Assembly: GCA_035626775.1 (NCBI GenBank)
Contig: DASPNA010000152.1
Location: 64,135-128,134 of the forward strand
Length of the DNA stretch: 64,000 nt
Reading direction: 5' to 3'
Source: Thermoanaerobaculia bacterium
Lineage (GTDB): Bacteria; Acidobacteriota; Thermoanaerobaculia; Gp7-AA8
Shown here: one piece after another, positions 2,925 to 16,285 of the stretch
Numbering within the stretch: position 1 is the first letter of the stretch
How the letters are laid out: each line of letters starts with the position of its first letter
Translations under genes and position numbers: made by a program
Notes under the pieces: model-generated
Databases searched by the model: none
Told to the model about the DNA's origin: nothing
What the model saw: only the letters and a program-made list of their open reading frames with translations

Positions 2925-5900
2925 ATGAAAGAAAAATGCGCGGTTCAAGCGAGTGAAACAAGGCGGATCACGAAAGGAGCGGCGTTAAGGCAAACCGGCG
3001 GCGGCCGGACGCGAATTTACCGGATGCTGCTCGCGACTCTCTTTGTCGCTCTGTTCGCGACCTCGCCCTGGGCGGAGGCGCAACCCGCCCGGTGGAACTA
3101 CCTGAGGGATTGGTTCGATCTGACCACCGCCAGTGGCCTCGCGCAAGCCCAACAACACGCGTTATGGGTTCTCGACAATGAAAGCTGGTTCATCGCGAGC
3201 GGTTTTGGCAACGGCGTCCATTACAGGACCGCCGACATGCCCAGACTGCACATCAAGTTGGTGAGAGATGATCTCCGCAAGATTCAAGAGGCCGCGCAAA
3301 TGCGGGGGCTGCGGCCGCAACACCAGACCGCTCAATACCGCCTCGCGAACCAGGCGCCGTACAGCGTCACGATGGGCCCGGCTGCCTTGACCTTTCAAGG
3401 TGCGTCCGTGCGAATGATCGAGGGTACGCGATATGAGCAGACCATCAATCGCGAAATAGAAATCGGCGACATCGTCACCAAGTGCAACAAGTTCAACACG
3501 GTTTCTGCGTTTTCCGGGTGGGCCACCGAAGTGGTGGCGGATCCCACGTTCAATGGTTCGTACCTCGACTCCTACAAGAACCAGTGGCTGAAAGGTCGCC
3601 TGACGCGGACGGCAGTCGAGACATATCGCGAGCCCAAACCCGACAGCTGCAGCCGGCACGTGGCCCGGTATGTCTACCGCTACGAGTATCACGGTCCTGA
3701 CGGGAGGATCCTCGCTTTCTTCCAGCGTCCGCAGGAAGTACCGGGGACTTCGACGTGGACTGCGGACAGTTGTCAGACGCGACAACCGATCCCTGCCCCG
3801 GAGCCGGACCATTTCTGGTCTTCGGAAGGAAACGCCGCACTCGACACATCGAACAAATGCCGCCCGGTGATTCGGTGGGCAGACGGGTCGACGGAAGAGT
3901 TTCACATGGCCGAAAGCCAACGCGATGTGAGCGCGTTCTCGCCCGAGGTCGCCAAACCTTTCAGGCCGACGTGCGCCTCAACAGACCTCACGAACGACCT
4001 GCGTGCCAAGGACCGTAATGGCAACATCACCACCTATCGTTTCACCAGCACAACCGAGACCATGATCGATCCGCAGGGACGTGAGACCATTCTCACGTTC
4101 GAACCGACGGACGACCGCGGCTTCCGACGCCTGATCAGCGTCGACCTGCCGTCTGTTGGCGCTGCACCGCGTCACCGGTACACGATCCAGTGGCGCGCGC
4201 CGCTCCAGGTTTCTTTTGCATCGATCTGGCCCGATGTGACCTGCCGCACGAGAGAGGGAGCCGTTCAAGCCTGCGGCACGAGCTTCGTTCAATTGGTGGA
4301 CTCCGTCACGATCCCTGACGGGCGTCGCTACACGTTCGAGTATGGCCCCTGGGGGAATCTGACGCGAGTCACGGAGCCTGGCGGCGCCATTCGCGAGTTC
4401 CAGTACGGCGATGCGGCCAACCTGGCGTACGCACGAGCGGCGTCTACGGAATCGGACACACTCATCGATTCGACCGATTGCGGCGTCATGTGGTCGGAGG
4501 AAACTCTGCGCATGCACGCTCGTGGCCTGGTCCGCGAGCGAGTCCTGCCGGACGGCGTGGGCGGCGCTGTTTACGAGACGAAAACCAACATCGTGGTGGA
4601 AAGGCTGAATCCGCAGCTGTATCCGCAATGCGAATACGACATCGTCGGAGCGGCTACGCGCGGGCCGGATGGTTGCGCGCAGGTCTGGAGAGAGAACACG
4701 CTGCCCGACGGATCAGTCGTGCGAAACGGTACCGTCTCTCGTGCGATTCCTTTCCCGACGGACCATGAAGATGACGTATTCACGTTGCCGCCGTCCGTGC
4801 CGGTGCTCATCCACGGATGGAGCATCGGGCAAGAGCGTTGGTCCGGCCCAACGTTGCTCAGCGCGCAATACTCCGGCGATAAACAGACCGGCGAGCTCTA
4901 TTACGACTTCGATCTGGTCAAGGCGGTCACTCTGCCCGGCGCAATCCCGGCGAACGTCCGTCCGTCGAAGGCGATCTCCTTCAAGGACGGTTTGTACACG
5001 ACCTCAAATTTCGTCTATGGCAACGCAGTGGATATCGATCCAAATCCGACCGCGCAGGAGTTGCGTGACACGGAATCGGCTGTCTCGACGTGTCTGTTCG
5101 GTGGATTGGTCGTCGCGCGCGGCTGTACCCCGCCGGGTGGGCGTCCGCTCGTCCGTACGGACAACGCGTACGTCAATTATCACGGTCCGGCGATTGACGG
5201 CCCGAATCTTCTTGGACTGGCCGCGGCAAACCGCATTTACGGACCCAACTCCACGGGCACGGCATTTTCCACGACCGCTTTGGCGGAAACGTCGATCGCG
5301 TTCGATCAATTCGCCGTGGTACCGAGCGGTCGGCCAAGTTCGTCTCTCGACCCAAATCTCGGGCGAGCCGCCGGCACGCCGCGCGGGAACGCCACCAGAA
5401 CCACGCAGAGGGTGAGCGCCGGAAAATTCATTTCCAGCGAAATCCGGTATTTCGATACGGGCGACGTGCAGTCGAGTACCGATGCAATGAGACGCACAAT
5501 GACGTCGCTGCAGGATTTCTCATTGTGCAGTTCGAGCACGCCACGATGGACGACGACCACCACGAATGCGCTCGGCCATGTGGCGAGCATCACGGTTGAC
5601 TGCAGTTCCGGGTTGACGCTGAAGACGACTGACGCCAATGGTGAAAGTAGTTTTTCACAGTATGACCATTTAGGACGGTTCGTGGAAACGGCAGGTCCGG
5701 GAGACCAGCTCACGGCCTTGCCACAGTCAGGTGCCCAGGCGTTCACGCGCGCGCCGGACGCTCCGACAGGCGCAGGCACGAAGCCGGGTGACGCAAGGGC
5801 CGCAGGATGGAGGGAGTACCTCGATTTCGGCATCCTCGGCCGGCAGCGTACGGTGATCCATGACAGAGATGGTTCGCCGGACGGCTATTACGTCAAGAGT

Positions 5901-8900
5901 TTCATGGACGGCCTCGGGCGGACCGTACAGACGAGATCCGAAGCTGATCCGGCCAGGTCTGGTTTCGCAGAGGTGGTCTCGACTACGGTCTACGACGGTC
6001 TTGGCCGAGCAGTCAAGAGCCTCGTGCCCTGCTTCGCCGCGTCCAGCAGCAGCATCACGCCGCATTGCGGCTCGGTCGCCACCGAGATCGTATATGACGC
6101 TTTGAGCCGCCCGACAAAAGTCACCTCCCCTGGCGCGGTGACAGTGACCTCTGCTTTCACGCACCAGGACGGCCGCTGGCTCACCATCAATGTCGATGGA
6201 CGCGGGTTGACGACGAAGAGATTCTCGAACCTGCTCGGCCAGGTCGAGCAAATAGACCGGCAGTCCGCGCTCTGTGGCGGTTTCTGTACGGAAAGAGCCA
6301 CGTTCGACGCCGCCGGCCGAACCCTTACCCAGGGAGACGCAGAGGGAAACACCATCCGTTACACGTACGACGATCTCGGCCGACCGTTGTCGATGTCCGA
6401 CCCAAACCTGGGCAACTTGACTTATGCGTATGACGACAACGGAAACTTGACGCGGCAGGTTGATGCAAAGGGGCAGACGATCACATTCAACTATGACGCT
6501 CTGAATCGATTGACCCTCAAAGATTTGCCACCGGCCGGACCGAGCATCGAAGACGTCACCAATTTCTATGATGGCCAGGGACCGAAACCGCCCGATCCGG
6601 GGAGCGCGGCGGCGATCGCATCGATCGCTCCGAACGTGCGCGACGCCGGGACCGGCGCATTCACGCTGACTGTTGACGGCAGCAATTTCGTCGCCGGTTC
6701 TGTAGTGACTTTCAATGGTCAAAGCCGGGCCACGACCTTCGTTAGTTCGCAGCAACTGCGCGCCGCGATACTCGCCGGTGACGTCAACACTGCCGGCTCG
6801 TTCCCGGTGATGGTCGTGAGTCCAGCCCCTGGCGGCGCGTCGAATGCCGCGACGTTCGTCGTCAACGCACGACCAGTGGTCAGTGTGACGCGGCCTGCTG
6901 CGAGCGCGATCTTCGATGCGCCTGCCTCGATCATCGTGGAGGCTGCTGCGACCGACGGCGACGGCATCCGCCAAGTCGAGTTCTTCCAAGGTGCGGCAAC
7001 TTTGGGCGTTGACCAGACGGCGCCGTACTCGGTCAGCTGGAGCAGCGTTCCGGAGGGCACTTATCGATTGACGGCAGTCGCGACGGATACCCGCGGCAGC
7101 ACCACCACCTCGGCGCCGGTCGACGTCACTGTCCGGCCGGGCTCACCGGTGAACGCGTCACAGTTCGTTTCACAATCGGTCCCTGCTGTGATGGTGGCAG
7201 GGCGAACGTACAACGTTTCGGTCACGGTGCAGAACAGCGGTACTACGACATGGACCGCCGCTGATAAATACAATCTCGGCTCCGAGGGGCCGCGGGACAA
7301 CCAGACGTGGGGCTTACACCGCGCACCGCTTCCTGGGTCCGTGCCGCCAGGAGCGCAGGTCACGATCCCGTTCACGGTCACCGCGCCAGCCACACCGGGC
7401 GAGTACGGGTTCCAGTGGGGGATGGTGCAGGACATGGTGGGAGGAGGATGGTTCGGCGCCACCCCACGAGTCACCGTCCGTGCGGAATCGCCTGTGAATG
7501 CGTCACAGTTCGTTTCGCAATCGGTGCCTGCTGTGATGGTGGCAGGGCGAACGTACAACGTCTCGGTCACGGTGCAGAACAGCGGTACTACGACGTGGAC
7601 CGCCGCTGATAAATACAATCTCGGCTCCGAGGGGCCGCGGGACAACCAGACGTGGGGCTTACACCGCGCACCGCTTCCTGGATCCGTGCCGCCAGGAGCA
7701 CAGGTCACGATCCCGTTCACTGTCACCGCGCCAGCCACTCCGGGCGAGTACGGGTTCCAGTGGGGGATGGTGCGGGACATGGTGGGAGGAGGATGGTTCG
7801 GCGCCACCCCACGAGTCACGGTCCGTACGGAAGCACCGGTGAACGCCGCACTGTTCGTTTCACAATCGGTCCCTGCTGTGATGGCGGCAGGGCGAACGTA
7901 CGCCGTCTCGGTGACCATGCAGAACAGCGGTACTACGACATGGACTGCCGCTGATAAATACAATCTCGGCTCCGAGGGGCCGCGGGACAACCAGACGTGG
8001 GGCTTACACCGCGCACCGCTTCCTGGATCCGTGCCGCCCGGAGCGCAGGTCACGATCCAGTTCACGGTCACCGCGCCAGCCACTCCGGGCGAGTACGGCT
8101 TCCAGTGGGGGATGGTGCGGGACATGGTGGGAGGAGGATGGTTCGGCGCCACCCCACGAGTCACGGTCCGTACGGAAGCGGCGGTGAACGCGTCGCGCTT
8201 CGTTTCGCAAATCGTCCCTGCTGCGATGATCGCGGGGCGCACCTATACCGTCTCGGTGAAGATGCAGAACAGCGGTACTACGACCTGGACCGCGGCCGGC
8301 CTATACAACCTCGGCTCGCACGGGCCGCAGGACAACACGACATGGGGCTTGCATCGCACCCCGCTTCCGGCCTCAGTGCCGCCGGGTGCGGAGACGACGT
8401 TCCAGTTCACAGTCACGGCCCCAGCGACGCCGGCCAACTACGTCTTCCAGTGGCGCACCGTGCAGGACACCGTGCAGTGGTTCGGCGAACTGACACCGGC
8501 CGTCACGATCCCGGTGCTTTCCGCCGCGAAGACGGGGCTGATCGCGAGCTGGAACTTCGACGAGGGCATGGGTACGACGACCGCTGATGCCACTGGCAAT
8601 GGAAGCACGGGTACGGCGGGTAAGCTCGACTGGACAAAGGGACGTATGAATTCGGGACTGCGGTTCGTGAGCACAACCAACAACCCGGTGAGGATCAGCC
8701 CTTCGCCCAGGGTCTCTGCGCTGAGTAACGACTTCACGGTTTCGTTCTGGGCGCAGCCGGAGTCCGCGCATCAGATCGACGTGGCGAGCGGCAGCGGCGC
8801 TAGCGGTGTCACGGGCCAGAAATATGTGATTGGTCCGCGCTACGAGTCGTTTGGAGACGCAGGCATTGGCATCTCGCTCGGCAACAACGGAGTGAGTGTC

Positions 8901-9416
8901 TACGAACACAGCGCGAGTCACATGCCGGCAGTGCTGGTGTATTCGGCACCGATCAGCGGCTGGACGCACATCGCCGTGGTGTATGAAAACAAAAGGCCGA
9001 CGCTCTATGTCAATGGCACATCGGTGCTGATCGGCGGGACCAGCTCGCGGTCGAATGTATACGCCGTGCCGGCCGACATCGGCGGGATGGCCTACGGCTA
9101 TTACGACGGTCTGCTGGATGAGGTGCGCATTCACGACAGTGCGCTGAGCCCGGCAACGATCGCGGCAATGGCTCAGGAGACTGTGGCGGATTTGAAAATC
9201 GATGGAGAAACCGGGACAGTGGTGGCGGATGCGTCGGCCGATGCTGCGCAACCGATGGCCCTGCTGAGCGGAACCGTGTCGGCCGACGGCCGGACCACGT
9301 GGATCGACCCCACCTCCTCCTCGACCGGAGACCTCCGTACATTCTCGGCGCGCCTGCGCAAAGCATCGTCTGTTTTTCCACTCACGAATCAACACCGACG
9401 GTTGGAGCCGCTATGA
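2925..9416 (+). CDS. Giant secreted multidomain protein: signal peptide, N-terminal YD/RHS-repeat region, IPT/TIG domain, bacterial Ig-like domain, 4 tandem NBR1-like Ig domains, C-terminal LamG/concanavalin-like domain
   Basis: Good RBS GAGGGA before ATG 2925 and signal-like [22 protein letters not shown] repeats: [36 protein letters not shown]: [33 protein letters not shown]. Four ~115-aa repeats: [31 protein letters not shown]...[16 protein letters not shown]. LamG-like: [12 protein letters not shown]...FTVSFWAQP. Confidence 0.85.
7141..8520 (+). repeat. Intragenic tandem DNA repeat, 4 x ~345 bp. Copies 1-3 are almost identical at nucleotide level and copy 4 is diverged. Each unit encodes one NBR1-like Ig domain.
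   Basis: Unit boundaries at about 7141, 7486, 7831 and 8176. Copies 1-3 differ at only a few positions. The antisense ORF 7061-8242 is a by-product of the repeat. Confidence 0.8.
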
Positions 9417-11569
9417 CGACCATCGAACACTTGCCCATGCATGATCGAGAGTCATCACTTCTGCGCGGCCGTAACGCCGGGAATGGAGAGAACACCGTGA
9501 CCAATCACCGATCCGATGCAAACCGATTGCTTCGTCGTTCCGTCATTGCTGTCGCAATCTCGTTTTGGAGCGTCACCGTACATGCACAGGCAGTGAACAC
9601 GACCACGAAACAGCTCGGCCGCTTGACGTCGTCCGGCAACGGTCTTACGCGAACGTATTTCCAGTACGACCCTCGGGGCCGCACGACGGCCACGCAAATC
9701 GTACAGGACGGACAGAGTCGCGTATTCAGGACACGCTACGGCTACCCGCAGAACCCGGCTGTTGCTGAAGGCCCTGGCACCGTCGCCGTTGCGCAGGTCT
9801 TGCCGGACGGCGACGAGGTCACTTACGCACATGACGCCATGGGGCGGCAGGTGACGATCAAGAGCACGCTCGGCTCCGCTACCGATGAGGTCCTGCGCGA
9901 TTTGCGACTCAACGCCCGCGGGCAGGTAACCAAGGTTGTGTTGGGAAACGGCACGACCACGCAGACCACATACAACGAGGCTGGAGATCTGCGCCTGGCG
10001 AGCACGGTGACGACCAACGCTGCAGGGCAAAAGATCCAGGAGTACCGATATACCTATGACGCGAATGGCAACGTCACCGGCACCAGCGATGGCGTGCGCC
10101 CCGATCAATCGGCGACGTATGGTTACGACGAGCTCGGGCAGCTCACAGTCATCAACAATAGCTCAGGCAATGCCATCGAAAGCTATAGTTATGACAAGAT
10201 CGGGAATCTCACTCAAAAAGGAGCGCTCGCGCAGACGTACGGCGCCGGCGGCCGGCCTCATGCCCTGGCGTCGTCTGGCGGCATCCCGTACAGCTACGAC
10301 GGCAACGGCAATGTTGTCGCCATCGGCACCACGACCACTCTGCAGTGGAACGGCGAGAACATGCCGGTGACGGTGGCGGCGGGCGCGGTAAACATCCAGA
10401 GGTCCTACATCGGTCACGCTTTGTGGAAGAAGGTTGAACAAGGGAAAACCACCTACTACCTGCCGTCGATGCACGTGGAGAACGGTGTCGCCACGAAGTA
10501 CTACGGCACGCTCGCGGAACGAACCGAACAGGCGGGGAACCGCGGACTGCGTTTCTACCACGCGGACCATCTGGGCAGCTCTTCAGTAATGACCGATCAG
10601 TCCGGAAACGTCATTCGGCGCGCATCCTACCTGCCGTGGGGGCAGGACCGGGGCGTGGTCGGTACGTTCGTACCCAAGCTGCAATTCAACTTCAAGGAAA
10701 AAGATGCGGCCGGCTTCTACGACTACGGAGCCCGTCTCTATCACCCGACAACGGGACGCTGGTTGTCGGCAGACCCGCTGTTGCTGGACGGCCCGAACCG
10801 CTATGCCTACGTCCGAAACAATCCGTTGACGTTCACCGATCCGACTGGATTGGCAGTGGACGACTATTTCATCAATAGAGACGGATCGATCTACAGAGTA
10901 CTCACAGATGACACTTTCGACCGCTTTTACGTCGAGACCGAAGACGAAAATTTGAGCGGCGGTTATACGCTCGCCGCACAGATCGAGAGAAATGAGGACG
11001 GTCTCACGCTGTTTCCTGCCACTGGTAATGGATTCGGTCGCCACCAAACATCCGAGCGCGGCGGTGAGTCCAAGATCACGCTAAAAAACGGCCGAGTAGT
11101 CGTAGAGACGGTCGGGTCTGGTGACCACTATCTGAAGCCGGCCACTGCTGCCGCTCTGTTTGGGGTCATTCACTTCTTGAACGCGAACTATCTCTCCTTC
11201 GGTGACATGTCATCGTCGAACGGAAGCGATCCATGGCAAACGGGGATGGATCATCATGGTGGTCACGGACACTTCGGCAAGCGGAGCGGCCTCGATATCG
11301 ACTACCGGTACCTTGACGCAGACGGCAACGCCCGGCAGGGCGTAATGACCGATTCGTGGTTCCATAGAGGCAACAATCAGGCGCTTTACGATAAGGCGGC
11401 TCTATTCGGATTCAACAACAATTACTCTGGGTTTTCCGTCGACCCCTTCGGAAACGCCAGGCAGCTGGGTGGCCACGATAATCATGGCCATCTCGGACAC
11501 AGCGGTGACGTGACGCGAACGATGACCCGGGAGCAAGGAAGAGGTTTCTACCCCTTCATCGTACGGTGA
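9413..11569 (+). CDS. RHS-repeat protein with RHS core and a divergent ~240-aa C-terminal domain (putative polymorphic-toxin-type effector)
   Basis: ATG 9413 overlaps the upstream stop (ATGA). Signal-like RRSVIAVAISFWSVTVHAQA. YD repeats: YTYDANGNVTG, YGYDELGQLT, YSYDKIGNLT, YSYDGNGNVV. RHS core: FYHADHLGSSSVMTDQSGNVIRRASYLPWGQ ... YDYGARLYHPTTGRWLSADPL ... DPTGL. The C-terminal tail carries HHGGHGHFGKRSGLDIDYRY and GGHDNHGHLGH. Confidence 0.85.
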   Translation: MTTIEHLPMHDRESSLLRGRNAGNGENTVTNHRSDANRLLRRSVIAVAISFWSVTVHAQAVNTTTKQLGRLTSSGNGLTRTYFQYDPRGRTTATQIVQDGQSRVFRTRYGYPQNPAVAEGPGTVAVAQVLPDGDEVTYAHDAMGRQVTIKSTLGSATDEVLRDLRLNARGQVTKVVLGNGTTTQTTYNEAGDLRLASTVTTNAAGQKIQEYRYTYDANGNVTGTSDGVRPDQSATYGYDELGQLTVINNSSGNAIESYSYDKIGNLTQKGALAQTYGAGGRPHALASSGGIPYSYDGNGNVVAIGTTTTLQWNGENMPVTVAAGAVNIQRSYIGHALWKKVEQGKTTYYLPSMHVENGVATKYYGTLAERTEQAGNRGLRFYHADHLGSSSVMTDQSGNVIRRASYLPWGQDRGVVGTFVPKLQFNFKEKDAAGFYDYGARLYHPTTGRWLSADPLLLDGPNRYAYVRNNPLTFTDPTGLAVDDYFINRDGSIYRVLTDDTFDRFYVETEDENLSGGYTLAAQIERNEDGLTLFPATGNGFGRHQTSERGGESKITLKNGRVVVETVGSGDHYLKPATAAALFGVIHFLNANYLSFGDMSSSNGSDPWQTGMDHHGGHGHFGKRSGLDIDYRYLDADGNARQGVMTDSWFHRGNNQALYDKAALFGFNNNYSGFSVDPFGNARQLGGHDNHGHLGHSGDVTRTMTREQGRGFYPFIVR

Positions 11570-11741
11570 TCAGGTTGAACGGCCCCGTCGAACAGGTCTC
11601 ACGCTCTCAACGTCCGCTGGTTCCGGCCAGCGGACGTTGTTCTCTCTGTACCTCACACCTCGAACAGCGATTCCGCTCGCACCGTCAAAACGCCACGCGC
11701 TTCGACGACTGAAAGAGGGAGCCGTTCGTCCCTGGATCACC

Positions 11742-12213
11742 ATGACCAGCAAGAAAACAACCGCGGGCTTCACCGTCGCCGAGCTGATCACCGTGGTGAC
11801 CATCATCGGCATCCTTGCGGCGCTCGCTCTGCCCGTGGCGAGAGTCGGAGTTCGGCGCCAGAAGGAAATCGAGCTCAGGGCGGCGCTGCGAAAAATTACG
11901 GACGCCATCGACCAGCATTACGACCTGCGGACGATGGGAATGATCAAGAATCCTCCGCACATCGGTCAGGAGAGTTACCCGCGATCGCTCGATGAGCTCG
12001 TCGAAGGCGTGGAGCTCATGCCCGCAGGAACGCGCGTCCGCTTTCTTCGTCAGCGCGACCTGATCGATCCGATGACCGGGCGGGCGGAGTGGCGCACTGT
12101 GTCCGAGAGCGACAGCCCGGACACGTTGACGAGCGACGGCAACACGTTTTCGAAGTGCACTCCACGTCGACGGCGCTGTCGCTCGACGGCAAGACGCGCT
12201 ATAGCGAGTGGTG
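11742..12213 (+). CDS. Prepilin-type N-terminal cleavage/methylation domain protein (type IV pilin / T2SS pseudopilin-like); C-terminus probably frameshifted
   Basis: MTSKKTTAGFTVAELITVVTIIGILAALALPV is a class III signal (G|F, E+5). The +1 frame near 12140 ends ...DVFEVHSTSTALSLDGKTRYSEW*. The listed ORF instead runs into the convergent regulator gene. Confidence 0.55.
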
Positions 12214-12214
12214 A

Positions 12215-12859
12215 TCAGTCCGGTCGAATGAGGCCGCGTTGGATCGCCTGCGTCGCGGCCTCGGTCCGATCCTGCACCCCGAGCTTCATCAGAATCTTCT
12301 TCACGTGACCTTTCACGGTCTGTTCGCCGATCCCCAGAATTCCGGCAATGACCTTGTTTCGCGTTCCCGGAATCAGCAATCGCAGAACGTCGCGTTCCCT
12401 CTCCGTGAGCAGCGAGGAGCTCCGCGTGTAGTTGACGAGTGCGGCCGATGCCTCCGCTGAAAGGTACCGGCGTCCGGCGTGAACCGCGCGGACCGCGCTG
12501 ATGATCTCCGACGGGTCGGCGTGCTTGAAGACGTACCCTCTCGCTCCCGCGGAAATGGAGTTGTGTACGTCTTCTTCGCTCCCGTAGCTGGTGAGCATGA
12601 CGCAGCGACAGCAGCAAGATGCCTCCGCCAGGGCGTGAACGACATCGACGCCCGAGTAGGAGCGCAGCCGGAGATCGACCACCGCCACGTCGGGACTCTT
12701 CTCGCGGCAGATCGCGACCGCACCCTCCAGATCCTCGGCTTCGCCAATGACCTCGATGTCGCGATGGTTTGCGAAATACGAACGAAGTCCGTGCCGGACG
12801 ATGAAATGATCGTCGACCAGGAGGAGACGGATTCGCTTCGTTTGCTGCATCACGCTCAC
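12215..12859 (-). CDS. NarL/FixJ-family response regulator (receiver + LuxR-type HTH)
   Basis: RIRLLLVDDHFIVRHGL...VAVVDLRL receiver. C-terminal LTERERDVLRLLIPGTRNKVIAGILGIGEQTVKGHVKKILMKLGV HTH. Start overlaps the HK stop (ATGA). Confidence 0.9.
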   Translation of the reverse strand: MSVMQQTKRIRLLLVDDHFIVRHGLRSYFANHRDIEVIGEAEDLEGAVAICREKSPDVAVVDLRLRSYSGVDVVHALAEASCCCRCVMLTSYGSEEDVHNSISAGARGYVFKHADPSEIISAVRAVHAGRRYLSAEASAALVNYTRSSSLLTERERDVLRLLIPGTRNKVIAGILGIGEQTVKGHVKKILMKLGVQDRTEAATQAIQRGLIRPD

Positions 12860-15790
12860 GCACGCACCTCCACGATGATCTCGAAGCCGCTGCGGCGGCT
12901 GTTCGCGGTCAGCTTCGCCCCGATGCGCTCCGCGCGCTCGCGCATGCCGCGCAACCCGTAACTCGACGAGCCCACTTGCTCCACGTTGAACTCGCCCGAT
13001 CCCTTTCCGTCGTCGCGAACCATCAGGCTCACCTTCTTCGGCTGAAAATCGATCCTCAACAGCACGTTCCGCGCGTTCGAGTGGCGCAGCGCATTCGTGA
13101 TCGCTTCCTGGCCGATCCGAAGAAGGTGATGCTCGATGACGGGATCGCTCAGGCGGCGCCGTTTGCCCACCACCTCGACCTCGCCGCGAATGTGCAAACC
13201 CTGAGTCATCGTATGCAGGACGTCGGTCAACGCCTGGGCCAGATCATCGGCTTCCAGTCGTTCGGAACGGACGTTTTGCAACCCGTTTCGCACCTCGGCC
13301 AGCGTCGTCATCAGCAATCCCTTGACGTTCTGCAGATGCTCGCTCGTTGCCTCACGATCGTCGGCGGCGTCCAAGGCACTCTGGACGTGCAGCATCGCGC
13401 CGGTCAATCCCTGCGCCAGGGTGTCGTGCATCTCGAGCGAGATCCGTTTGCGCTCGTCCTGAACGGCCTCGAGCCGCATGCGCACCTGGTGCAAACGCCT
13501 GTGATGGGCGAACCAGGCCAGGGATAGTAGAAGGGCCGCAGCCACGGCTCGGAACCAGTGCGTCTGATAGATGGCTGGCAGCCGCCGCACGTCCACCACC
13601 GAAGCAGCCAGCCAACGGCGCTCGTGCCCATCCGCCGCTTCGACGCGGAATTTGTAGTGGCCTGGCGGAAGACTGGTGTACTCGGCCACGCGGGATTCGC
13701 CCGCGTTGATCCATCCGTGGTCGTAGCCGTCGAGGCGGTAACGGAAGCGAACATGTTTGGCGACGACCGTTGTGGGGGCCGTATAGCGGAACTCGATGCG
13801 GTCACGATCGGTCTTCATCACGACCGGACCCTCGAGCGCTACGGTCGTGGCGTTGACGCGCACCCGCTCGACGAGCGGCGGTGTGCGCAATACCGGAGCT
13901 TGCCGGCGCGGGTCGAGAACGGCCAGGCCTCGCGCGGTGGACAGCCAGATGCGGCCGTCCGAGGCGTACCAACCCGAGGGAGACACGCCGAAAGAGCACT
14001 CCACGGAGGGCATGCCGTCGCTCACGCCATACACGACAGGATGCACTGTGGAAGTCCCTTGCCGAAAAACGGTGTCGAGCTCCTCGCGCGCTACGCGGGC
14101 GACACCCTTCGCAGTGGCGATCCAGAAAAAGCCGCGGTCGTCTTCGAAGAGTTGACTGACGGCGCCGTCAGGCATTCCTTGCTCAGCGGTGTAGCGAAAT
14201 GTGCCGGTGCCGTCGAACCGGTGCACGCCGGTTCGCGTGCCGAACCAGATCTCGCCGCGGCGATCCTGCGAGATCGTGATCGTGACGGCCCGCGGAAGTT
14301 GTCGTCCATCGCTGCGATCCGTAAAGCGCTCACCGTCGAACACGCGCGGTCCGCCACCGGAGTGGGGAGCGACCCAAAGGCGACCCTGCCGATCCTCGAA
14401 CATGTTGCTCATGAATTTCGACGGCAACCCATCCTCGAGACCGTACACACGCAGCCGGCCGTCCTTCAGATGAACCAGACCTTCCAGGGTACTGATCCAC
14501 AACGAACCGTCGCGTGCGCGAAGAAGACCCATGATGCAGTCGCTCGGCAGACCGTCGGCCTGGGTATAGACACGGACCGGCTTCCCGCCTTCGAGTCGAT
14601 AGAGTCCGCCGCCGTAAGTACCAATCCACGCCCGCTCCGCCGTTTCGGGTGCGACAGAAGTGACGAAGGCGTCGCGCAAAGGCGTGGACGCCGCGACATG
14701 CGTCCACGTTCCTTGGTAGAAGCGGTTTACGCCTCCCCGTTCCGTGCCCGCCCAGATCGATCCGTCATCGCCTTCGGCGACGGTCCAGGTGACATCGGAC
14801 GACAAGCCTTCGCGCCGGGCGTACGACTGGAAGGATCCTTCGAGCAGTTGGTTGACGCCGGCCAGGTGCGTTCCAGCCCACAGTGTGCCCTCGGCGTCTT
14901 CGAAAATCGATTCGACGAAGTCGTGAGAGAGCCCATCCTTCGCGCCGATTCGCGACAACCGGCCATTGGTCCAACGCCACAATCCGTTCCTGGTCCCGAC
15001 CCAGAGCGTGCCGTGCCGGTCGATGAACAGGCGCCACGTCTCTTCGTTGATCAGCTGTTCGATCGGACGTTCGACACGTGAACCCGAATAACGCCGAGGC
15101 CCCCACGAGCCTGCGAACCAGATCTCTCCCCCGGACGTGCTCACGACAGTGTAGATCTTGCCTTCGACTCCCTCGATTTTCGTGGTTGTGCTGCCTGCGC
15201 GCCGATAGAGCCCATCCCGCGCGCCGATCCAGAGAGTTCCCCGGTGCATCGCCAACGCATAGATGGCGCCAGGCGCGCCCGTCTGGTGCACGACACGGCC
15301 TTGCGCGTATCGAAACAGTCCTGCTGTTCCTGAACCGAACCAGATGTCGCTGCCTTCGCCGCCGACGATCGCGAAGACGGTCAACTCCGAGCGTTCATGG
15401 ATCAGCGCAAATCGATCGTCCCGATAGGAAAGGAGGCCACCATTCGTTCCGATCCACAAGGTATTCGCGCGATCGCGATACAGACTCAGGACGTTGTTTC
15501 CTCGGAACGCAGCGACGTTGCTGGAGTTGAAGACCTCGAAGCGGACACCGTCGAAGCGGACCAGTCCTTCCTGCGTGCCGAGCCAGAGGTATCCGTCGCG
15601 CGTCTGCGCGATCGCCTGCACCGCATCCTGGGGAAGACCGTCTTCGACGTCCCATGAACGCTGGACGTACTGTGTCAACGGAACCGCGGGATCCAGTGCA
15701 TGCGCTTCGACGCACAGGATGAGGCTCAACGAGAAGACCGCCCATCCCAACCGGTGCAACGGCGACACGTCCGGCTCTCCTCCCGGCATG
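12856..15790 (-). CDS. Sensor histidine kinase with large periplasmic beta-propeller (two-component-regulator propeller / Y_Y_Y type) sensor, TM, HisKA_3 and HATPase_c
   Basis: Preferred start is MPGGEPDVSPLHRLGWAVFSLSLILCVEAHA (signal/TM). Repeated propeller blades: LWIGT..GL, IWFGT..G, LWVGT..GL. H-box RKRISLEMHDTLAQGL. ATPase region NALRHSNARNVLLRI...DDGKGS...GLRGMRERAERIGAKL. Confidence 0.85.
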
Positions 15791-16285
15791 GTTGAATCAA
15801 TTGGCGCGAGCGGCCCGAGAATAGGCCGTGCGAAGCGTGCAGGGGCCTCGAAAGAGGGGGCCTGCGAGACTCGTTTCGAGCTGTTCAACGAATCGTCATC
15901 CATCCGTGACCGGCCGGGGCGCCTTCGCCGCGGAACGCCTTCATACGCCGGAACAAACTCCGGGGAACAGCAGACCGACCCACGCATCGTAGCTCCAGCC
16001 TGCGTCCCTGGATGAAAGGGTTCATCAACAACACCATGCGCACAATGTCGACGGGCGCCCCGCCGAGCGGCATGAAGACGAAATACGCGGCGCGCGCGAG
16101 GCACAACGCGATCGACGGCAGCGCCGGTCCCACGCGGCGGTGAGCACGAGCGCCACGGTCATTCCGCGACGACGCCGCTCGCGAGCGCGGTCTTCATGGC
16201 CGCCGGCCCCTCACCCGGACGTTGGCCACCCTCTCCCCGCAAGCGGGGCGAGGGCTACCAAAGCGTGAGCGTCCCCATCGTGGCC

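Follow-up and report, generated by a model that had tools for sequence, protein, structure and literature searches.

A probable MepA-like peptidoglycan peptidase at the end of a short RHS protein from Thermoanaerobaculia, at a locus with no adjacent immunity gene

In a 64,000-nucleotide stretch of a Thermoanaerobaculia genome (contig DASPNA010000152.1; the whole stretch is called the window below), a short RHS gene at 9413–11569 on the forward strand encodes a 718-amino-acid protein that ends, after L480, in a tail of 238 amino acids. We consider it probable, at roughly 60%, that this tail is a zinc-dependent LAS-type peptidase, carried as toxic cargo by a short RHS protein that is exported through Sec. 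A preliminary description had placed some 240 amino acids after the DPTGL motif in the position of a polymorphic toxin, with no immunity gene beside it; its observation is confirmed here, and its interpretation is supported in part. The tail and the motifs that carry its assignment are as follows.

10853–11566, forward strand: MepA-like LAS metallopeptidase tail, predicted peptidoglycan peptidase toxin (residues 481–718)
11201–11236, forward strand: motif GDMSSSNGSDPW, with invariant D598 and S600, aligning with MepA GDMGMPAGG
11252–11311, forward strand: motif HHGGHGHFGKRSGLDIDYRY, in which H615-x2-H618 ... GLD628-x-D630 corresponds to MepA H110-x2-H113 ... GLD118-x-D120
11468–11500, forward strand: motif GGHDNHGHLGH, in which H688-x2-H691-x-H693 corresponds to MepA H206-x2-H209-x-H211

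The last two motifs are the histidine-rich strings that the preliminary description had quoted, and the tail as a whole contains 5.0% histidine compared to 2.3% in the remainder of the protein. It had also judged the tail unassignable to a known family, which stands for curated sequence families: no Pfam or NCBIfam model matched the tail at E ≤ 1, and when PDB sequences were searched, first with the tail alone and then with its profile, RHS-core matches from flanking columns were all that came back. A search of 5.8 billion proteins gave 127 relatives of up to 55% identity, none with a Pfam domain over the tail region, and the family is rare: when 1.84 billion cluster representatives were scanned in full with HMMER, only 120 clusters reached E ≤ 1e–3. 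Across an alignment of 48 sequences, D571, D598, S600, H615, D630, H688, H691, and H693 are invariant (numbering of the whole protein), H572 and H618 are conserved in at least 90%, and D628 falls outside the set of conserved columns. The window tail keeps all of the family-invariant residues. Because four of these histidines (H615, H688, H691, and H693) never vary and a fifth, H618, is conserved to this degree, the histidine cluster is not a product of chance.

Where the claim of unassignability did not hold is in structure, by which the tail can be placed as a probable, distantly MepA-like LAS peptidase. Structure prediction, which the preliminary description had proposed, gave a confident model of the tail from the homologue alignment (AlphaFold2; predicted local distance difference test score, pLDDT, 92.7; predicted TM-score, pTM, 0.91). 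In a Foldseek search of the PDB, the only significant matches of this model were to MepA: the top five (1tzp and 1u10) had probabilities of 0.99 to 1.00 and E-values of 4e–4 to 3e–3, the sixth match had an E-value of 0.33, and no nuclease was among the significant structural matches. The TM-score to MepA is modest, at about 0.43. The motifs of Escherichia coli MepA (GDMG, H110-x2-H113, GLD118-x-D120, and then H206-x2-H209-x-H211) have their equivalents in the tail in the same order (GDMS, H615-x2-H618, GLD628-x-D630, and then H688-x2-H691-x-H693). All seven metal or catalytic residues of MepA thus have tail counterparts (H615, H618, D628, D630, H688, H691, and H693), and within the tail family six of these either never vary or are conserved to at least 90%, D628 being the exception. 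The marks of a metal-dependent hydrolase that had been noted in the histidine-rich strings are therefore borne out, in that the conserved histidines and aspartates appear to match MepA motifs. The zinc ligands of MepA are H113, D120, and H211; in the tail, Zn2+ would be held by H618, D630, and H693, with H615 and H691 assisting in catalysis.

Profile comparison found the same motifs at lower confidence. In local mode, hhalign aligned the motifs of the tail with those of a single MepA sequence (E 0.011) and, over 121 columns, with a MepA profile (E 0.0014) that is shallow and holds close Enterobacterales sequences only; the probabilities were low (4–17%), and global mode returned nothing against the MepA profile. 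When Pfam was scanned at E ≤ 10, Peptidase_M74 was the commonest sub-threshold family among the tail relatives (6 of 48 members, best E 0.047, all below its gathering score), the window tail itself having no match at E ≤ 1. The tail also differs from MepA in several respects: sequence identity is 11–13%, the loop that leads from HxxH to GLDxD has five more residues, and an additional beta-rich subdomain of about 90 amino acids lies at the N terminus. Finally, MepA is a housekeeping periplasmic enzyme, whereas the tail domain is deployed as a polymorphic toxin tip. We conclude from the model and the motifs that the tail most likely represents a new LAS peptidase family, nearest to M74 and distantly related to MepA. 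The domain family, the fold match, and the motif equivalence are results of computation; enzymatic activity and bond specificity are what we infer for the protein.

The genomic distribution of the domain bears on its substrate and its role. Genome matches come from Bacteroidota and Acidobacteriota, and the domain mostly follows directly after an RHS DPxG boundary, either in long RHS proteins (1600–2250 amino acids) or in short orphan tips. In Fluviicola and Flavobacteriales, the same domain opens proteins of 720–1227 amino acids that carry five other kinds of peptidoglycan hydrolase domain (VanY/Peptidase_M15_4, phage lysozyme, GH108 with PG_binding_3, LysM, and Amidase_2). We extracted and clustered the downstream open reading frames (ORFs) from 42 genome loci carrying the MepA-like domain and found two families of partner genes.

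L008–L047 (for example, L012:6741–7412): family-1 partner ORFs, uncharacterised, lipoprotein-like
L042–L048 (for example, L043:6614–7225): family-2 partner ORFs, uncharacterised, lipoprotein-like

Family 1 occurs at 29 loci as an ORF of 202–302 amino acids on the same strand, –30 to +57 nt from the toxin stop codon (+140 in one case), and a hidden Markov model (HMM) search added copies at L007 (truncated), L004, and L005. Family 2 occurs at five loci of a divergent toxin subclade, with 173–203 amino acids and a distance of –3 to +4 nt. All partner ORFs begin with a hydrophobic N-terminal segment, which in 27 of 30 family-1 ORFs is followed by an aligned cysteine in a lipobox-like context. Neither family has a Pfam match, and family 1 also has no significant match in a PDB sequence search. 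A partner ORF directly follows the toxin stop codon at 35 of 35 RHS or orphan-tip loci, 30 of them with family 1 and five with family 2, and in a neighbor-joining tree the partner family follows the toxin subclade. Such co-occurrence and subclade tracking is the usual signature of a toxin–immunity pair and fits a toxin acting in the periplasm; we presume the partner proteins to be periplasmic immunity proteins. The preliminary description had suggested looking at homologues of the tail and the genes downstream of them, and this consistent pairing with a signal-peptide or lipoprotein ORF renders unlikely one of its alternatives, that the domain is not a toxin. Partner genes are missing from the seven multi-domain loci of the Fluviicola type. 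As a separate observation, proteins of 1216–1227 amino acids from Fluviicola and Flavobacteriales (L024:5833–9498, L025, L029, and L046) chain six cell-wall-acting modules, the MepA-like domain and the five kinds just listed, and have no partner gene nearby.

Because the domain is fused to peptidoglycan hydrolases and its partner proteins carry signal peptides, context supports peptidoglycan as the probable substrate. One alternative is that the tail is a metal enzyme of another kind, for instance an HNH or His-Me-finger type nuclease, whose target lies in the cytoplasm, and that the likeness of the tail to MepA is superficial. Nuclease tips are the commonest RHS cargo, a sister of the short RHS protein (P0370) has a WHH or colicin-DNase tip, and the modest TM-score and low hhalign probability would be compatible with such an enzyme. 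However, the significant structural matches are all to MepA, the tail repeats the spacing of all seven MepA residues, the fusion partners of the domain are peptidoglycan-acting domains only, and partner proteins with signal peptides or lipoboxes would act outside the cytoplasm. We regard such an enzyme as very improbable.

Against this background, the missing immunity gene in the window is a genuine exception to the rule of the tail family. A six-frame search of the 64 kb by HMM and tblastn revealed no homologue of either partner family (best E-values 1.8 and 0.19), and the partner is also absent from L001–L003, three identical copies of the window locus. What follows the short RHS gene is a spacer of 172 bp, from the stop codon (ending at 11569) to the ATG of a pilin-like gene (11742).

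11608–11649, forward strand: intrinsic-terminator-like hairpin with a 14-bp stem and a 4-nt loop (11608–11639), followed by TTCTCTCTGT
11742–12214, forward strand: pilin-like gene with a prepilin N-terminal methylation motif; the ORF as called extends to 12308

Compared to shuffled controls, the RNA of the spacer has a clearly lower folding energy (z = –3.6). The only ORFs that touch the spacer are a 48-amino-acid ORF with a GTG start (11566–11712) and an ORF antisense to the pilin-like gene. We rejected the first as a hidden immunity gene because the terminator hairpin lies inside it, its codon bias is weak, and it has neither a Pfam match nor relatives; its codon-position GC is flat (0.63/0.53/0.65, compared to a third-position GC, GC3, of 0.76–0.79 in neighboring genes), and no related locus has a counterpart, the orthologous locus L049 having no spacer at all. 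The second, of 112 amino acids on the minus strand, was rejected because it is antisense to the pilin-like gene. The absence of an adjacent immunity gene reported in the preliminary description thus holds, and no credible small ORF, on either strand, was overlooked between 11570 and 11741.

The pilin-like gene had been called unrelated to the RHS gene. It is in fact a conserved neighbor of the RHS gene, both in the window and at L049, but it shows no co-variation with the toxin. Compared to its L049 orthologue, which encodes 157 amino acids and ends just before a response-regulator gene, it has a 1-nt deletion near 12134, at which point the codon-position GC switches frame; one inserted base restores ...DGNNVFEVHSTSTA...YSEW and its stop codon, with 75% identity over all 157 amino acids. 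Because the deletion is identical in four independent assemblies, it is probably real. The repaired protein matches only the N-terminal methylation motif. One could suppose that this protein is a non-canonical, inner-membrane-anchored immunity protein of the periplasm: it occupies the immunity position, its start codon overlaps the RHS stop codon in L049, and, with its N-terminal helix as an anchor, it would face the periplasm. Yet it is 75% identical between loci with unrelated tails, it is frameshifted in the window, where a terminator stands between it and the RHS gene, and it is absent after the short RHS genes of L051–L054 and from all 42 loci with the MepA-like domain. We therefore rejected it as the immunity gene, a role that seems exceedingly improbable.

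Comparison with L049 also points to how the tail came to stand where it does.

10844–11765, forward strand: swapped cassette, to which nothing in the DNA of orthologous locus L049 is similar, flanked on both sides by about 70% identity

By blastn, the window aligns with L049 at 69.6% identity over 9602–10843 and at 70.6% over 11766–12839, with nothing between. The first breakpoint (10843/10844) falls inside the codons of the boundary motif, as DP/TGL, and the second (11765/11766) lies 24 nt into the pilin-like gene; the cassette comprises the tail and the terminator spacer and contains no immunity gene. Windowed GC content is 0.50–0.58 (mean 0.55) over about 10800–11500, compared to 0.645 for the whole window, and is back at about 0.60 by 11500–11700, past the stop codon; GC3 is 0.64 in the tail and 0.76 in the scaffold. 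The cassette is compositionally foreign. At L049/L050, which holds the homologue P0343, the gene order is a large RHS gene, a short RHS gene, the pilin-like gene, and a GerE-type response regulator; the short RHS gene of L049 has an unrelated tail of 249 amino acids and a stop codon that overlaps the pilin-like start, and it too is without an immunity gene. The arrangement resembles the C-terminal displacement of canonical RHS and polymorphic toxin–immunity systems in its RHS repeats, its core ending in DPxGL, and its compositionally foreign tail swapped exactly at the core boundary. It differs from them in that the displaced cassette carries no immunity gene and the window protein has no PAAR, VgrG, or other trafficking domain used in type VI secretion (T6SS). 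The tip probably entered by recombination between the DPxG boundary and the pilin-like start, bringing its own terminator and no immunity gene.

The carrier of the tail and its upstream neighbor have the following parts.

9413–11569, forward strand: short RHS gene, carrier of the tail (718 amino acids; RHS repeats and core)
9413–9592, forward strand: predicted Sec signal peptide, residues 1–60, ending in ...VIAVAISFWSVTVHAQA before VNTT, read directly from the sequence
10628–10852, forward strand: RHS-associated core, residues 406–480 (TIGR03696, E 5e–20), ending in DPTGL (476–480), the expected autoproteolysis boundary
2925–9416, forward strand: large upstream RHS/lectin gene (2163 amino acids), the proposed B partner of a Tc BC-like pair

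The 718-amino-acid protein is identical to P0340, annotated by NCBI as an RHS repeat-associated core protein of a Thermoanaerobaculia bacterium, and its RHS repeats match PF05593 in seven stretches (E 1.5e–19). Both window RHS proteins and most relatives appear to start with a Sec-type signal peptide (...AQA/VNT..NQIGRLTS); the n-region, the h-region, AxA, and then (V/I)(D/N)T..NQIGRLTS recur among the short RHS homologues. An AlphaFold2 model of the whole protein has a pLDDT above 90 over roughly residues 65–480, the scaffold, and is not confident over the tail because the alignment was mixed. The best PDB match of the scaffold model is YenC2 (4igl_B; E 1.6e–25, root-mean-square deviation 4.3 Å over 522 columns), with TccC2 (6l7i_G) and RHS2 (5kis_B) as further top matches and T6SS Rhs proteins ranking lower. 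The best structural matches are thus the C components of ABC (Tc) toxins. The 2163-amino-acid protein has a signal-peptide-like N terminus and, by Pfam, DUF6443, RHS repeats, TIG, Big_7, four N_BRCA1_IG domains, and Laminin_G_3. A unit of 345 bp that recurs 3.8 times with 90% identity (7146–8453) encodes these four NBR1-like immunoglobulin (Ig) domains, apparently through recent amplification, within the gene, of a putative binding module.

The TGA of the large gene overlaps the ATG of the short one in an ATGA junction. We rejected the possibility that a frameshift had split a single RHS gene, as codon-position GC shows the first frame to be coding up to 9412; since the two-gene layout also recurs in relatives, we take the split to be real. 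The first ~190 nt of the short gene have a weak codon bias (GC3 0.58). This bias, together with the 1-nt deletion in the adjacent pilin-like gene, could suggest a decaying or non-functional relic, in which a tip captured without immunity is tolerated only because expression or delivery of the RHS system has ceased. However, both RHS ORFs are intact and coupled, the tail retains every family-invariant residue, and the core motif, signal peptide, and terminator are likewise intact; moreover, the identical sequence occurs in four assemblies from three samples, which argues for an abundant strain. A relic is thus quite unlikely.

The pair resembles the BC components of Tc toxins (TcB and TcC, as in YenB/YenC2 or TcdB2/TccC3) in being two adjacent genes of which the second encodes an RHS half-shell of about 700 amino acids that ends in an RHS core and a hypervariable toxic tail, with no immunity gene. 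Unlike in the Tc systems, the upstream protein has Ig and lectin domains in place of SpvB and TcdB-mid, both proteins have predicted Sec signal peptides, and the cargo is predicted to be antibacterial and directed at the cell wall rather than anti-eukaryotic. No TcA-like gene was seen in the window, where no other ORF exceeds 1100 amino acids, in analyses that included no search aimed at TcA.

The RHS scaffold of the short protein (residues 1–479) has 278 homologues. These define a class of short RHS proteins of about 585–790 amino acids, each composed of a scaffold of about 440 amino acids and a tail; among 106 scaffold homologues in which the DPxG motif was found, the 40 listed have tails of 139–309 amino acids, and the tails of the class include Peptidase_M23, M91, and WHH/DNase types. 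The large-then-short layout recurs at L049, L052, L054, and the P0341 contig, and a short gene usually comes after a very large RHS gene in which Ig, TIG, NBR1, discoidin, and LamG domains abound. No credible ORF follows the short RHS genes of L051, L052, L053, and L054: the M23-tipped gene of L051 is followed 26 nt downstream by the next short RHS gene, leaving no room for an immunity gene, L054 has two short RHS genes in tandem, and at L052 and L053 the gaps are short and contain nothing but Arg/Ala-rich junk frames. We conclude that the RHS loci of the Thermoanaerobaculia class mostly lack adjacent immunity genes. Two side observations concern the same class. The layout of a large RHS/lectin gene and then a short RHS gene of about 650–720 amino acids with a Sec signal is recurrent in Thermoanaerobaculia, with tandem short genes at L051 and L054, and one sister short RHS protein (P0377, L051:3576–5564) has a Peptidase_M23 tip, another LAS cell-wall peptidase.

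We propose the following mechanism for the window locus. The YD-repeat shell of the 718-amino-acid protein probably closes with the 2163-amino-acid protein, as TcB does with TcC, and would enclose the tail, with the RHS core cutting after DPTGL. Released into or onto a foreign bacterium, the tail would hydrolyze peptide cross-links of peptidoglycan and so weaken the wall. The producer would most likely be protected by encapsulation, export of the toxin, and targeting of non-kin instead of by a cognate antidote. Because loci of this class are generally without immunity genes, the system probably does not strike kin; the suggestion in the preliminary description that the toxin targets non-self only gains support, as the orthologous and sister RHS loci also lack immunity genes. 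The delivery route and the target range, like the joint cocoon, are what we infer by analogy. A bolder version, which we hold only tentatively, is that Thermoanaerobaculia have an immunity-free and possibly predatory RHS weapon: a Sec-exported, two-protein Tc BC-like cocoon with interchangeable antibacterial cargo (here MepA-like, elsewhere M23), whose producer is never its target and in which the large protein, through its Ig and lectin domains, sets the choice of target.

Several points weigh against the proposed mechanism. All 35 other toxin-type loci keep an immunity gene, which is hard to square with a toxin that is harmless to kin. ORFs of 164 and 140 amino acids follow the short RHS genes of the P0341 contig, and the frameshift in the pilin-like gene could indicate local decay. 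The 2163-amino-acid protein has none of the Pfam domains specific to TcB (SpvB, TcdB mid-N, and mid-C), and for this reason the joint cocoon remains an analogy. Finally, our search for immunity homologues covered 64 kb of the genome. In the main rival explanation, the tail is the same peptidoglycan-hydrolase toxin, and its cognate immunity gene lies outside the window, for example in an orphan-immunity island. The pairing at 35 of 35 other loci implies that the toxin can harm kin, and unlinked or extra partner copies do exist elsewhere (a tandem pair at L030 and, at L047, a second copy 3 kb upstream). Immunity encoded elsewhere, as the preliminary description had also suggested, is excluded for the 64-kb window only, which holds no homologue of either partner family. 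However, the orthologous and sister loci also lack adjacent immunity despite differing tails, which argues for a property of the system and not for a relocated gene. We consider an unlinked immunity gene rather unlikely, and a relic, an activity other than on peptidoglycan, and immunity by the pilin-like protein each less likely still. Our preferred reading remains that the tail is a toxic LAS-type peptidase of a system that protects its producer by other means; the partner-gene statistics, the cassette breakpoints, and the absence of immunity homologues within 64 kb are computed observations.

Weapons of this kind are already known, because M23, M15, and MepA-like T6SS effectors and peptidoglycan-acting RHS tips have been published. 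A 2012 survey of polymorphic toxins describes peptidoglycan-acting tips of the NlpC/P60, L,D-peptidase, and glycohydrolase types and makes no mention of LAS or MepA tips (PMC3482391). T6SS effectors with M23 or M15 domains include the Tpe groups of Acinetobacter baumannii (PMC6833914), and a 2025 study reported 13 "MepA-like DD-peptidase" N-terminal domains, found by HHpred, in WHIX T6SS effectors (PMC12135965). Like such peptidoglycan-hydrolase effectors, which are mostly paired with periplasmic or lipoprotein immunity, the tail would use a cell-wall-cleaving enzyme as an interbacterial weapon, but it appears to belong to a different sequence family, one without a Pfam model and found on RHS proteins of Bacteroidota and Acidobacteriota. 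The literature searched seems to contain no description of the tail family, of its partner proteins, or of a BC-like setting without immunity. The analysis thereby gives a probable function, that of a cell-wall peptidase, to a toxin-tip family absent from curated databases and defines two uncharacterised lipoprotein families as likely antidotes; if this is correct, the known polymorphic toxins gain an LAS/M74-like class. The locus offers a natural example in which a toxin tip has been parted from an otherwise obligatory immunity gene, within a TcC-like two-gene RHS system that, throughout its lineage, seems to do without immunity. If this is true, it bears on how producers of encapsulated toxins avoid self-harm and on the use of Tc-like cocoons against bacteria as well as animals.

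Two further features adjoin the RHS genes. A Y_Y_Y/HisKA_3 sensor kinase and a GerE-type response regulator (12215–16104, reverse strand) lie next to the short RHS gene, and the same arrangement is found at L052:10356–14029, a paralogous locus from the same sample, making a regulatory link possible. In the gap of about 800 bp between a MoxR gene and the large RHS gene are two 10-bp tandem arrays, TCGGAGTACC repeated 5.6 times (2196–2250) and CTCCGAGGAA repeated 5.1 times (2277–2336), which may be a regulatory or repeat element.

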